A DNA stretch of 64,000 nt from Dehalococcoidia bacterium (lineage in GTDB: Bacteria; Chloroflexota; Dehalococcoidia; UBA6926): the NCBI GenBank assembly GCA_963666115.2, contig CAXXET010000004.1, forward strand, positions 352,001 through 416,000, in the 5' to 3' direction. The translations under genes and the position numbers were made by a program. The notes beneath the pieces are model-generated. The model was not told the DNA's origin. It made no database searches and worked only from the letters and a program-made list of their open reading frames with translations. This document shows, in pieces, positions 6,234-13,434 of the stretch. Each line of letters opens with the position of its first letter. Position 1 is the stretch's first letter.

Positions 6234-6308
<75 letters not shown>

Positions 6309-6419: not shown

Positions 6420-6433
6420 GTTAAGTAGTAAGC

Positions 6434-9425
<2,992 letters not shown>

Positions 9426-9503: not shown

Positions 9504-9551
9504 AAGGCGCAAACCATCATGCCGCCCGTCCGAGGACGGCGGCGGACTACC

Positions 9552-9581
9552 ACTATACGGACGCGGGGCGCGGGGTGTCAA
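9552..9581 (-). promoter_or_regulatory. Sigma70-type promoter of the 23S gene
   Basis: TTGACA-18 nt-TATAGT on the minus strand about 125 nt upstream of the mature 23S. Confidence 0.8.
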
Positions 9582-9587
9582 TGAGCG

Positions 9588-9610
9588 CCCTTCGACAAGC
9601 TCAGGGTGAC
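9588..9610 (+). repeat. REP-like palindrome family C (CCCTTCGACAAGCTCAGGGTGAC)
   Basis: Same architecture as family B (stem-TCG N5 CTC-stem-TGAC) with a different stem; single copy in the window. Confidence 0.6.
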
Positions 9611-9670
9611 CGGAGGGTGGCTGGTAGAATTGGGGGGTAGCGACGGCCAGAAGGCGGCGAGGGGGGATGC

Positions 9671-10702
9671 ATGCAGCTTCGGAAACTATCCGGCGGACTC
9701 AAGGATGCGTACCGCGGGTCGAACGTCGCCGGCCGCGTGCGAGATTTCGACGGATGGCTCGCCAGGGCGTCCGCCGATGACGGGGACGGCTACGACCACG
9801 CGGCAACGGTCAAGGAATACTACGACCTGTGCAGCGAGTTCATGGTGTACGGATGGGGCGAGTCCCTGCACTTCGCTCCCCTTTCGCCCACGGAGAGCCT
9901 GGAGGAGTCCAAGGCACGGCACCAGCGGTTGATGATCGAGAAGCTGGAGCTTGCGGAGGGGATGACGGTCATCGACGTTGGCTGCGGGCTGGGCGGGCCG
10001 ATGCGCCGCGTGGTCAGCGAGGGCGGCGTCAGGGTCGTTGGAATCAGCAACAGCGAACTCCAGTTGGAGAAGGCGCGCGCGCTGAATGCCGAGGCGGGAA
10101 TCGACGACATGGTCGATTACGTGGCGTGCAACTTCATGGACATGGGCGTTATTGCGGACAACACGTTCGACCGGGGATACGCGATTGAATCCACGTGCCA
10201 CGCGCCGGACAAGGCAGGCGCGTTCGCGGAGATCTACCGGGTGCTGAAGCCGGGCGCGCTGCTGTGGGGCCAGGAGATGTGCATGACGGACGCGTTCAAT
10301 CCCGATGACGATCAGCATCGCACCATCAAGCAGGACCTCATGCGCGGCATTGCGCTCAACGGCATCGCGACGACGCAGGAGGTGGACTGGACGCTGGAAG
10401 CGGTAGGGTTCGAGGTGATCGAGGGTATGGATCGGGGCGTGGTGGAGGACGATTTGGCGACGCCGTGGTACAGGCCGATGGAGAATCGGCACGGGACGGT
10501 GGGCAACGCCCTGCGGAGGACGCCGCTGGGGCGCAAGGGGATCATGTGGGGGTCAAAGCTGGCGGAGTTGGCCAGGGTATTTCCCAAGGGGTCTACGGAC
10601 GTGATCGGGCTGCTGGACCGGACGGCGAATGCGTACGTGGCGGGCGGGAAGACGGGGATATTTTCGCCGCTCTATTGTTTTTTGGCGCGGAAGCCGGGTT
10701 AG
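9671..10702 (+). CDS. Sterol C24-methyltransferase-like SAM-dependent methyltransferase (SMT/ERG6 homologue)
   Basis: YYDLCSEFMVYGWGESLHFA, IDVGCGLGGPMR, YAIESTCHAP, EIYRVLKPG and C-terminal GGKTGIFSPLYCFLARKP follow the conserved regions of ERG6/SMT. Confidence 0.85.
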   Translation: MQLRKLSGGLKDAYRGSNVAGRVRDFDGWLARASADDGDGYDHAATVKEYYDLCSEFMVYGWGESLHFAPLSPTESLEESKARHQRLMIEKLELAEGMTVIDVGCGLGGPMRRVVSEGGVRVVGISNSELQLEKARALNAEAGIDDMVDYVACNFMDMGVIADNTFDRGYAIESTCHAPDKAGAFAEIYRVLKPGALLWGQEMCMTDAFNPDDDQHRTIKQDLMRGIALNGIATTQEVDWTLEAVGFEVIEGMDRGVVEDDLATPWYRPMENRHGTVGNALRRTPLGRKGIMWGSKLAELARVFPKGSTDVIGLLDRTANAYVAGGKTGIFSPLYCFLARKPG

Positions 10703-10745
10703 ATTCTTCGCTGCGCTCAGAATGACAAGCCGCGCTCAGAATGAC
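10701..10745 (+). repeat. REP-like palindrome family B (GATTCTTCGCTGCGCTCAGAATGAC) plus partial tandem copy
   Basis: Full copy 10701-10726 and partial GCGCTCAGAATGAC 10732-10745; overlaps the stops of both convergent genes. Confidence 0.9.
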
Positions 10746-11815
10746 AAAAGCAGGGCGCGGCAGAATTGGGCGCCCTGTTCGAGTTCTGAGATTTTGACGC
10801 TCTCACGGACGGTGTGGGCATCGTGCATGGCCGCGCCGACCACGACGGCCTCAATGCCGTTGAGGACGAAGACGTTGCCGTCCGTGCCGCCGCCGGAGAC
10901 CGCCATCTGGGGGGTCATACCGAGCCGCGTCAGGGTGTCCTTGACGCGGGCGAGCGCGCCGGCGGATTCATCCAGGCGGTAGCCGATGAATTGCTCTCGG
11001 AGGTCGCAGTTGATTGTGGCTTCCGTCCATCGCCCCTGCGTGTCCTGCACGATATTGAGGAGATAGGAGCGGACGCGCTCAAGGGCATCCGGGTCATGGC
11101 TGCGGGTTTCGCCGGTCAGGCTCGCGTGTTCCGGCACGGCGTTGCGGACGCTGCCGCCCTCGATGAGGCCGACGTTGAAGGTGGTGTTTTCGTCCAAGCG
11201 GCCGAGCCGCATCTGGACGATCATCTCTGCGGCGATCTGGATTGCAGAGATGCCCTTTTCCGGCTCGACGCCGGCGTGGGCGGCACGTCCGGTAATGTCG
11301 ATGTCAAAGGCCAGATAGGTGGGACTGCCCGTCGTGACCTGGTAGGCGGGGCCTTCGCCGTCAAAGACGACGGCTTCTTTGGCACGGAGCATGGAGAAAT
11401 CAAGGTTCTTGGCGCCGACGAGTCCGATTTCCTCTTCGCGAGTGAGGGCGATTTCAACGGGGCGGCGGGGCGCGCCGTCCAGTTGGAGGGATTCCAACGC
11501 TTCGAGGATGACAGACAGTCCGGCCTTGCAGTCGCCGCCAAGGACGGTGGATTGGTCGGTGTGGATGATGTCGCCATCGATGATGGGCCGGATGCCCCGC
11601 CCCGGCTCAACAGTATCCATGTGGGCGGAGAGGAGGATGGGGGAGTCGCCGGGCTCGGTGGCGATGACGTTGCCGTATGCGTCACGGGAGACTGTGAATC
11701 CGAGGGCTGCGAGGCGGGTTGAGAGGACGTCCGCGACGGCGGCCTCTTCGCCAGAGGGGCTGTCAATGCGGACGAGATCGGTGAATGTGGTGATGAGGCG
11801 GTCACGGTCAATCAT
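10736..11815 (-). CDS. M20 family metallopeptidase (peptidase T-like)
   Basis: SAHMDTV, LGGDCKAG, EEEIGLVGA, AAHAGVEPEKGISAI, GGGTDGN and HT.RE motifs. Confidence 0.9.
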   Translation of the reverse strand: MIDRDRLITTFTDLVRIDSPSGEEAAVADVLSTRLAALGFTVSRDAYGNVIATEPGDSPILLSAHMDTVEPGRGIRPIIDGDIIHTDQSTVLGGDCKAGLSVILEALESLQLDGAPRRPVEIALTREEEIGLVGAKNLDFSMLRAKEAVVFDGEGPAYQVTTGSPTYLAFDIDITGRAAHAGVEPEKGISAIQIAAEMIVQMRLGRLDENTTFNVGLIEGGSVRNAVPEHASLTGETRSHDPDALERVRSYLLNIVQDTQGRWTEATINCDLREQFIGYRLDESAGALARVKDTLTRLGMTPQMAVSGGGTDGNVFVLNGIEAVVVGAAMHDAHTVRESVKISELEQGAQFCRALLLSF

Positions 11816-12948: not shown

Positions 12949-13434
12949 TCAGCCTTGCGCAACTGCCTGTACAGGTGATTCTACAACGGAGACGGTTCCC
13001 GTCATACCGGGGTCCGAATGGCCGGGGATGGAGCAGATGAGATCGAATTCGCCGACCTTCGTTGGCGTGAAGCGAACTGTCTTCTTGGAACCAATCCGCA
13101 TCGATCCCGTTGCGACGCTGAACTCCTCGATGACGAGATCGTGGTCGACGGTGCCGAGGTTCCTGAACTCGATGACGGCTTCCCGGTTCACGGGAATCTC
13201 GATGACATCCGGTTCAAATGCCCATTCGGTGCCGACGACGATGTAGCTGCCGTCGGGTTGGAGGCCCGTCGCGCCGATGTCCTGGTTGTTGTTGCAGGCG
13301 GCGAGGGCGAGGGTGAGGAGAAGGAGGAGGGGGAGATTCTTCGCTGCGCTCAGAATGACATAGCCGATGGATTGCGGGGCCGGCCCGATGGATTCCGGCT
13401 TTCGCCGGAATGAGGGGAAAATACGTTTCGTCAT
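12949..13434 (-). CDS. Cupredoxin-domain lipoprotein with REP-derived N-terminus
   Basis: Lipobox LAAC; type-1 Cu ligands H(DL)...C(SIPG)H...M; ATG overlaps the folD stop (TAATG). Confidence 0.8.
   Translation of the reverse strand: MTKRIFPSFRRKPESIGPAPQSIGYVILSAAKNLPLLLLLTLALAACNNNQDIGATGLQPDGSYIVVGTEWAFEPDVIEIPVNREAVIEFRNLGTVDHDLVIEEFSVATGSMRIGSKKTVRFTPTKVGEFDLICSIPGHSDPGMTGTVSVVESPVQAVAQG
13334..13359 (+). repeat. REP family B copy inside the cupredoxin CDS
   Basis: AGATTCTTCGCTGCGCTCAGAATGAC; reads VILSAAKNL on the minus strand. Confidence 0.9.
13390..13413 (+). repeat. REP family A variant inside the cupredoxin CDS
   Basis: GGATTCCGGCTTTCGCCGGAATGA, a compensatory stem change relative to other A copies; reads SFRRKPES on the minus strand. 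Confidence 0.85.

Follow-up and report, generated by a model that had tools for sequence, protein, structure and literature searches.

As Brown et al. 2023 (PMC10070321) demonstrated, desmosterol and 24-methylenecholesterol can be alkylated by bacterial sterol methyltransferases (SMTs) known from sponge and environmental metagenomes; many of these enzymes are encoded in SMO-OSC-CYP51-ERG24-SdmAB clusters (OSC, oxidosqualene cyclase). The gene analysed here, located at positions 9671..10702 of a 64,000-nucleotide stretch of DNA from a Dehalococcoidia bacterium (hereafter, the window; C4:352001-416000 of the genome assembly denoted G000), encodes a member of a bacterial SMT clade that is labelled type O in this work. 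Judging from the sequences, type O is a sponge-symbiont SMT subfamily that is predicted to work with dispersed sterol-type tailoring and transport genes in a bacterium unable to make sterols.

Steranes with alkylated side chains (24-isopropylcholestane, 26-methylstigmastane) serve as the oldest chemical evidence for animals, and the present gene would bear on which organisms produce the unusual sponge sterols behind such biomarkers. The string "Chloroflex" occurs nowhere in the main text or the readable supplements of PMC10070321. According to Kelly et al. 2022, SMT1/ERG6 is enriched in metagenome-assembled genomes (MAGs) of Ircinia symbionts, and ERG24-FDFT1 doublets occur. A GPP34-cytochrome P450 fusion is described as exclusive to sponge symbionts, with a proposed role in evading phagocytosis, in PMC11706023. 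A list of 25 residues that are conserved in all functional SMTs is given in 10.64898/2025.12.19.695621, along with the statement that no SMT structure has been solved.

The type-O subfamily

The gene and the site that precedes it are as follows (position, strand, description):
9671..10702, plus strand: type-O SMT-family gene, intact open reading frame (ORF) of 343 amino acids with an ATG start.
9654..9666, plus strand: putative ribosome-binding site, purine-rich GGCGAGGGGGGAT, read from the sequence a few bases 5' of the ATG.

The predicted product is an ERG6/SMT protein of full length, and its Region I is altered. The sequence-only reading of this DNA had claimed a full ERG6/SMT signature with two substitutions, FMVYGWG and IESTCHAP, and this holds: the translation contains both motifs (the second within AIESTCHAPD), along with an intact S-adenosylmethionine (SAM) motif DVGCGLGGP (residues 102-110). 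Region I is EFMVYGWGESLHF, Region III is IESTCHAP and Region IV is KPGALLWGQEMCMTD, followed by the Sterol_MT_C domain. A Pfam search identifies a class I SAM-dependent methyltransferase core (Methyltransf_11, 62.2 bits), which matches the CMAS family as well, and a Sterol_MT_C domain (PF08498) at residues 281-342 with a score of 51.8 bits against a cut-off of 21.7, the sole match to this domain in the whole G000 genome. None of the NCBIfam models matches the protein at or above its cut-off, and the nearest solved structures are generic small-molecule methyltransferases, e.g., MitM (E 9e-22), aligned over the core region only. The N-terminus, MQLRKLSGGLK, is kept in the orthologues, which supports the annotated start; the purine-rich GGCGAGGGGGGAT ahead of this ATG is likely the ribosome-binding site.

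A scan of 1.84 billion cluster representatives yielded 230 homologous proteins at E<=1e-30. The 150 best representatives were reduced to 106 by excluding 44 with lengths below 300 or above 480 amino acids, and the addition of the window protein, five orthologues and two paralogues resulted in a tree of 114 rows (quick IQ-TREE run, LG+G4, support by the Shimodaira-Hasegawa-like approximate likelihood ratio test, SH-aLRT). The Sterol_MT_C domain is present in 82 of the 88 nearest full-length representatives. The window protein belongs to a 9-row clade (99% SH-aLRT) nested in a 12-row clade (100%), and it is found among SMTs, not with other methyltransferases. The type-O clade is purely bacterial and is surrounded by a bacteria-dominated section of the tree, with the named references, namely the rice cycloartenol-C-24-methyltransferase-like protein, Cladosporium erg6, two further fungal SMTs and the sequences from Mesostigma and Rhodomonas, located elsewhere. 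The description of the gene as eukaryote-type is thus an overstatement, given that its strongly supported and entirely bacterial clade lies in the bacteria-dominated part of the SMT tree. The backbone of the tree is weakly resolved, so that no conclusion is drawn on the origin of type O.

The residues of the presumptive substrate pocket were surveyed in 119 type-O sequences from 80 genome loci and 39 metagenome loci (some columns cover 118), with ERG6 numbering transferred through motif offsets, without alignment to the yeast protein. Where the canonical Region I has the pattern Y/F81-E82-Y/F83-GWG-x-x-F89-H-F, the window protein has M58-V59-Y60-GWG-E-S-L66-H-F. The altered residues are fixed in type O: M58 and L66 are found in 118/118 sequences and S174 in 119/119, and in Region IV, WGQ (199-201), M203 and C204 are each present in 119/119, with E202 in 117/119. 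The altered Region I is therefore not confined to the window gene and is a hallmark of the entire subfamily. The residues of the SAM-binding and catalytic regions are likewise conserved, with D102, G104 and G106 present in 118/118 sequences, H67 in 117/118 and every position of DVGCGLGGP in at least 117 of 118; E173 (=E195) and G195 (=G217) are identical in 119/119 and align with IEATCHAP and LKPG of the named SMTs. The window protein keeps 23 of the 25 residues of functional SMTs, the exceptions being T78, replaced by S55, and F89, replaced by L66. The ratio of nonsynonymous to synonymous substitution rates (dN/dS) is about 0.11-0.12 for the window gene compared to the orthologues of loci L015 and L017. 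Together, the invariant SAM-binding and catalytic residues and a dN/dS of about 0.11 indicate a functioning enzyme rather than a decaying copy. The type-O gene is predicted to encode an active enzyme with a rebuilt, conserved pocket, not a relic, and the invariance of this pocket (Met81, Val82, Leu89, the Region III Ser and WGQEMC) would point to a non-standard substrate or to a methylation position other than delta-24.

A conserved cassette and its dispersal in the G000 genome

A scan of relatives with one genome per GTDB species identified 309 loci. The best 80 of the 309, analysed here, are 69-88% identical to the window protein. Their record titles are mostly Dehalococcoidia, Chloroflexota and SAR202, the others being Candidatus Poriferisocius, Acidimicrobiia, Aldehydirespiratoraceae, Sva0996, Candidatus Dadabacteria and Rhodospirillaceae; such high identity across phyla points to horizontal spread of type O. 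Neighbouring genes were predicted with a simple ORF caller, clustered by blastp at >=30% identity and >=60% coverage, and labelled with Pfam. The recurrent neighbours are:
60 of 80 loci: GPP34-cytochrome P450 fusion, 675 amino acids (Pfam GPP34 and p450), the commonest type-O neighbour.
59 of 80 loci: RND pump of the MMPL type, 825 amino acids (Pfam MMPL and Sterol-sensing/Patched).
52 of 80 loci: KshA-like Rieske oxygenase (Pfam Rieske and KshA_C).
37 of 80 loci: FAD amine-oxidase-like protein.
23 of 80 loci: MFS transporter.
17 of 80 loci: LppX/LprAFG-type lipoprotein.

The commonest core order is RND, SMT and then P450 on the opposite strand, and the cassette as a whole runs LppX-like, MFS, Rieske, RND, SMT, followed by the convergent GPP34-P450 and FAD amine-oxidase-like genes. 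Among solved structures, the Rieske protein is closest to 3-ketosteroid 9-alpha-hydroxylase (E 1.6e-28), and it scores 36 bits on the SdmA model against a cut-off of 600. The RND pump weakly resembles HpnN, a hopanoid transporter, scoring 104 bits on a model whose cut-off is 752. The window gene is orthologous to the cassette SMT: it belongs to the same clade and possesses the hallmarks M58, L66, S174 and WGQEMC.

The G000 assembly consists of 2,067,757 bp in 9 contigs and is 100% complete by marker genes, with 0.3% contamination. No RNA run was among the sequencing runs found to match this DNA, and the best-matching runs contained just 0.20-0.29 of the sampled words, so that nothing is concluded from them on expression or habitat. 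In this genome, the SMT gene and the cassette are not linked: the SMT gene is on C4, and the remaining cassette, consisting of SDR, FAD oxidase, GPP34-P450, RND, Rieske, MFS and LppX-like genes, is at C6:349.9-360.0 kb, where the SMT slot is closed by a 4-nucleotide overlap between the RND and P450 genes at their 3' ends. The claim that the gene is solitary, with no sterol genes nearby, is accurate locally, and the SMT also stands alone in the loci of the other members of the genus, but it does not extend to the genome, in which the partners are found on C6 and an ERG4/ERG24-family gene on C1. The SMT is a displaced member of a conserved cassette, not an orphan. Two genes past the G000 cassette, behind a ferritin-like gene, there is a gene for a 448-amino-acid protein resembling HTTM/vitamin-K-dependent gamma-carboxylase (HTTM 290.5 bits, plus the lumenal domain; L151 14676-16022, G000 C6:360675-362021). 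A short GPP34-only gene at G000 C3:83670-84272, whose product is about 40% identical to the N-terminal domain of the fusion, is present in all searched genomes of the genus and in G022.

The ERG4/ERG24-family gene, at G000 C1:85665-86726, scores 115.6 bits, and its best PDB match is 4quv, delta-14-sterol reductase (E 2e-30); no match to this family was found in 14 control genomes. It belongs to the following locus:
L004 7782-12730 (G000 C1:81.8-86.7 kb): hpnE, hpnD, hpnC, a UPF0047 gene and the divergent ERG4/ERG24-like gene.

The hpnC, hpnD and hpnE genes are adjacent; HpnC (328 bits) and HpnE (433 bits) are above the respective NCBIfam cut-offs, and HpnD (276.2 bits) is just below its cut-off of 278.6. 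Profile searches of G000 detect neither PF13243 nor PF13249 (SQHop_cyclase N and C), nor PF08491 (squalene epoxidase). Thus, the genome has no detectable oxidosqualene or squalene-hopene cyclase and no squalene epoxidase. No domain of an Mce/MlaD-type lipid importer was found in G000 either. Matches to 3Beta_HSD were set aside as generic because all 14 control genomes show them too.

The genus set of 22 genomes, including G000, was compared with 19 genomes sampled outside it within its family, order and class. In the genus, type O is present in 15 genomes, a second SMT paralogue denoted type P is present in 9 (one copy with a stop codon and one fragmented), and neither was found in 4. An intact GPP34-P450 fusion (78-100% identity) is encoded in 18 genomes; the copy in G014 is divergent, those in G008 and G009 are pseudogenes, and none was found in G001 or G016. 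All 15 type-O genomes encode an intact fusion; of the 7 genomes without type O, 2 lack the fusion, 2 carry it as a pseudogene, 1 has a divergent copy and 2 have an intact one. An intact ERG4/ERG24-like gene was found in 14 members of the genus, and G009 and G021 contain stop-bearing remnants of it. In the 19 genomes of other genera, neither a full-length SMT nor a GPP34-P450 fusion was found. Because the genomes of the genus are related, these co-occurrence counts are descriptive and no statistical test is attached to them. Type O appears to be coupled functionally to GPP34-P450 although the two are unlinked in this genus.

Decay of cassette genes is apparent in two genomes: the GPP34-P450 gene of G008 contains a stop, and in G009 the fusion is split, the type-P gene has a stop and the ERG4/ERG24 remnant contains stops. 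The positions are:
G008 C1:976127-978148: decayed cassette gene.
G009 C1:763669-765676 and C1:755977-756897: decayed cassette genes.

Type P is about 38% identical to type O and has a canonical Region I, with TCCAP replacing TCHAP in Region III (IEATCCAPD, Cys for the conserved His). It follows the FAD oxidase gene in G013, G010 and G006 and is absent from G000:
L107 8245-9297: type-P SMT paralogue.
L109 8254-9339: type-P SMT paralogue.
L111 8975-9994: type-P SMT paralogue.

There is also a second cassette type that lacks an SMT and consists of genes for squalene epoxidase, an OSC-like cyclase, a sterol-sensing RND pump and GPP34-P450:
L152 8414-16377: second cassette type in G014.
L153 5500-13368: second cassette type in G101.
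L154 5978-13995: second cassette type in G089.

The RND pump and the GPP34-P450 fusion of this second cassette, encoded directly beside squalene epoxidase and the OSC-like cyclase, are paralogues at 51-60% identity. The cyclase scores 708 bits on the oxidosqualene-cyclase model and 276 on the hopene-cyclase model. In G014, the RND gene of the second cassette reads as two ORFs.

The features that flank the SMT gene in the window are as follows:
6432..9425, minus strand: 23S rRNA gene, the upstream neighbour of the SMT gene (Rfam LSU_rRNA_bacteria, 2685.8 bits).
9552..9581, minus strand: sigma-70-like promoter match, TTGACA-18-TATAGT, 11 of 12 consensus matches.
10710..10747, plus strand: dispersed short repeat directly after the SMT stop, two tandem copies (10710-10728 and 10729-10747) with the core GCTCAGAATGACA.
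10736..11815, minus strand: M20-family peptidase gene, convergent and downstream, outside the system (Pfam Peptidase_M20 and M20_dimer).

The sigma-70-like site (one found against a mean of 0.3 in shuffles, and a consensus match only) lies within the 245-bp gap between the 23S and SMT genes, is aimed at 23S and diverges from the SMT gene, and it fits a 23S promoter. The SMT gene had been said to adjoin the 23S promoter and to lie between two repetitive extragenic palindromic (REP) elements. The first statement is borne out by the position of the 23S gene and of the match read at 9581-9552, and the second only on the downstream side. There, the 13-nucleotide core GCTCAGAATGACA of the tandem repeat has 88 copies across the 2.07-Mb genome, whereas upstream, three 20-mers from 9519-9640 are each single-copy in the genome, and this segment contains a hairpin and the promoter-like site. 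The 15-mer GCGCTCAGAATGACA occurs 6 times in the window compared with 0 expected in shuffles, and dispersed GATTCTTCGCTGCGCTCAGAATGACA-like repeats are found also at 13346, 25849, 34580 and 43298, usually preceded by a G-rich stretch. A terminator search 3' of the SMT gene yielded no match. No sterol gene is among those that follow, which encode the M20 peptidase, QueA, a cupredoxin-like protein and FolD. The order 23S, SMT, M20 peptidase, QueA is common to G013, G007, G011, G019, G015 and G004 (blastn synteny), and the SMT is encoded beside 23S in at least six other species, with 78-88% protein identity. The shared order in six congeners implies that the relocation is old and is not an assembly error. 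The 23S gene has no 16S or 5S gene alongside, with tRNA-Met at 6234-6308 (minus strand) downstream of it, and an Rfam search finds no further rRNA in the window, so that the rRNA genes are unlinked.

Candidate substrates

The substrate of type O is predicted to be an externally supplied sterol, a reading to which we assign an even chance of being correct. The suggestion in the sequence-only reading that host sterols may be methylated fits the wider evidence. Under this hypothesis, the enzyme would use SAM to methylate an isolated C=C bond, as other SMTs do, in the side chain of a sterol or in an isoprenoid tail much like one, with Region I holding the carbocation intermediate. The cell would not make the sterol-like compound itself but would obtain it from the sponge host or neighbouring symbionts; further tailoring would fall to the oxygenases and the reductase, and transport across the envelope to the RND and MFS-lipoprotein systems. 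The cassette contains sterol-themed neighbours, namely the KshA-like Rieske protein and the pump with a sterol-sensing domain, and ERG4/ERG24-like reductases are encoded in 26 of the 34 larger type-O genomes. An OSC-like match is absent from 75 of the 77 larger type-O genomes, with an extra match of this kind in 2. A cyclase is present in 55 of these 77 genomes and none in 22; all seven of the cyclases scoring high on SQHop_cyclase_C that were checked by NCBIfam (six from these genomes and that of G011) are squalene-hopene cyclases, and the lower-scoring cyclase of G014 is OSC-like. Two genomes are of particular relevance: G071, a 3.07-Mb record under the title "chromosome" that contains the entire cassette, and the Dadabacteria MAG G073 each encode type O and two ERG4/ERG24-like proteins, with no SQS_PSY and no cyclase. 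Together with the lack of squalene epoxidase and cyclase in G000, the existence of two type-O genomes without squalene synthase makes an external sterol the likeliest substrate.

Several observations weigh against this explanation. The accessible text of PMC10070321 and of 10.64898/2025.12.19.695621 contains no assay of a verified type-O member. Two of the 25 residues of functional SMTs deviate (T78 to S and F89 to L), and departures of this kind may, according to the authors of the latter study, indicate that an enzyme does not act on desmosterol and 24-methylenecholesterol. In published models, the docked sterol side chain is lined by positions 81 and 82, which in type O are Met and Val in place of Tyr/Phe and Glu. 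The presence of hpnCDE in 22/22 genus genomes and of HpnD-like genes in 32/34 larger type-O genomes fits a squalene pathway equally well, and the ERG4/ERG24-like gene is found beside hpnCDE in G000 and at least two congeners (G011 and G015). RND pumps usually export their substrates, and the lack of an Mce/MlaD importer in G000 leaves the entry route of a sterol unexplained. Furthermore, squalene epoxidase and an OSC-like cyclase occur together in a single species of the genus, G014, which lacks an SMT. A specific form of the proposal is that type O methylates host sterols at a non-canonical position or at a non-delta-24 olefin, e.g., C-26/C-27 as in aplysterol-type and 26-methyl sterols, with the cassette oxidising or reducing the products and pumping them out; we consider this version rather doubtful.

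The same gene contexts can be read as those of a squalene (acyclic triterpenoid) methyltransferase, an unlikely possibility but the main rival, in which squalene made by HpnCDE would be methylated at its terminal double bonds by type O (and type P where present), in the manner of the triterpene methyltransferases of Botryococcus braunii, tailored by the ERG4/ERG24-like reductase, the Rieske protein and the P450, and exported by the RND pump. The adjacency of the HpnC, HpnD and HpnE genes in G000 and the distribution of HpnD-like genes described above are compatible with it, all the more as such genes were found in just 3 of the 19 SMT-free genomes sampled outside the genus; so are the position of the ERG4/ERG24-like gene next to hpnC in G000, G011 and G015 and the presence of as many as two SMT paralogues per cassette. 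Moreover, 20 of the 22 genus genomes have no cyclase, so that squalene is without a known sink there. Squalene as the common substrate is argued against by G071 and G073, which lack SQS_PSY and yet keep type O with two ERG4/ERG24-like genes. The steroid-themed neighbours (the KshA-like Rieske protein and the sterol-sensing pump), the paralogous RND/GPP34-P450 pairs beside squalene epoxidase and the OSC-like cyclase in three genomes, and the restriction to sponge symbionts, which suggests a host-linked substrate, all speak against it too. The genomes in which type O accompanies hpnCDE are related, so that common descent may account for the pattern. That the substrate is some other endogenous lipid carrying an isolated double bond, such as a hopanoid (diploptene), an isoprenoid quinone tail or an unsaturated acyl chain, appears improbable. 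Cyclases are indeed present in 55/77 larger type-O genomes, with 6/6 of those checked being squalene-hopene cyclases, the RND pump resembles HpnN, if weakly (104 bits against 752), and the methyltransferase core matches CMAS. Nevertheless, the cyclase is missing from G000, from 20/22 genus genomes and from 22/77 larger genomes, which means that hopanoids cannot be the common substrate, and we reject them in that role; the Sterol_MT_C domain and the placement in the tree identify these proteins as SMTs, not as cyclopropane or fatty-acyl methyltransferases.

Two further explanations were weighed. That type O is a decaying or non-catalytic remnant, stranded after excision from the cassette, is highly improbable. 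In its favour, the SMT is displaced from its partners, G008 and G009 contain cassette pseudogenes, 7/22 genus genomes yielded no type O, and the protein has the two deviations from the "functional" residues. Against it, the ORF is intact with a dN/dS of about 0.11, the SAM-binding and catalytic regions show invariant residues, the position beside 23S is kept in at least 6 other species at 78-88% protein identity, and co-occurrence with an intact GPP34-P450 is strict (15/15 genomes). Least credible of all is an ordinary C-24 SMT in a complete de novo bacterial sterol pathway, to which we give hardly any credence. Membership in the SMT family, and the occurrence of published bacterial SMTs in SMO-OSC-CYP51-ERG24-SdmAB clusters (PMC10070321), would agree with such a pathway; however, G000, with an estimated completeness of 100%, contains neither squalene epoxidase nor a cyclase, the cassette is a different one, with a Rieske protein that scores 36 bits on the SdmA model against 600, and Region I is unlike that of every canonical SMT aligned. 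With neither cyclase nor epoxidase found, we reject a de novo sterol pathway in G000 and regard it as close to refuted. The externally supplied sterol is retained as the leading candidate.

Relationship to described systems

The type-O branch is strongly conserved and apparently shared horizontally, and its carriers lack sterol synthesis yet hold several sterol-type tailoring and transport genes. If host sterols are the substrate, type O would be a concrete, clonable candidate for the production of sponge sterols by symbionts and would suggest a chemical role for the GPP34-P450 fusion that marks sponge symbionts; should the non-canonical methylation of host sterols prove true, part of the demosponge biomarker sterol diversity would come from bacteria of several phyla that share one mobile cassette. 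If squalene is methylated instead, this would be the first bacterial counterpart of the Botryococcus enzymes discussed below and a new source of methylated acyclic triterpanes.

The cassette that joins the type-O SMT with GPP34-P450 is not in print as far as our searches reach: a literature search found no paper with both "sterol methyltransferase" and "GPP34". The fusion described in PMC11706023 is the same as that encoded in G000 at C6:352145-354169, but that paper draws no link to an SMT, a Rieske oxygenase or a sterol-sensing pump, and in its main text, the terms sterol, methyltransferase and MMPL each have 0 occurrences. The ERG24-FDFT1 doublets of Kelly et al. 2022 match the pairing of the reductase gene with hpnCD in G000.

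Compared to Saccharomyces ERG6 and plant SMT1, the four conserved regions and the C-terminal domain align, and the identity to fungal, plant and algal representatives is 30-38%. The differences are that the type-O lineage is bacterial, that the genome that encodes it has no sterol pathway, and that the window protein deviates at positions 81, 82 and 89 and has QEM in place of YEW in Region IV, these being residues implicated in side-chain handling by mutagenesis or docking. A non-sterol precedent is available in TMT-1, -2 and -3 of Botryococcus braunii (PMC3533583): these SMT-like enzymes, whose sterol-binding regions are variant, methylate squalene, an acyclic triterpene. They are algal enzymes, whereas type O is tied to steroid-type neighbours, and the likeness drawn from their description is one of protein family. 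The logic proposed here for type O is also that of Stmp1 (CBU1206) of Coxiella burnetii, a sterol-modifying ERG4/ERG24-type reductase that is described as representing eukaryote-like tailoring of a host sterol by a host-associated bacterium without sterol synthesis. Stmp1 is a different enzyme, from an intracellular animal pathogen, with no methyltransferase involved, so that the parallel is conceptual only.

The closest described systems remain the bacterial SMTs of PMC10070321 and 10.64898/2025.12.19.695621. According to these studies, the active enzymes have a canonical Region I (GWGxxFHF, Y/F81), whereas type O has Met81, Val82 and Leu89; type O is found in a different cassette, and the genome of the window gene has no OSC. 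The tested sponge-metagenome contigs listed by Brown et al. do not overlap with the 39 type-O metagenome contigs, in a search that would miss distant type-O members, and several of these 39 bear prefixes that Brown et al. name as sponge metagenomes. At the same time, type O and the published enzymes belong to the same family, possess the same pair of domains, come from the same kind of habitat (uncultured bacteria, many of them from sponges) and share the conserved SAM motif and the equivalents of H90, E195 and G217, and both bear on the interpretation of sterane biomarkers.

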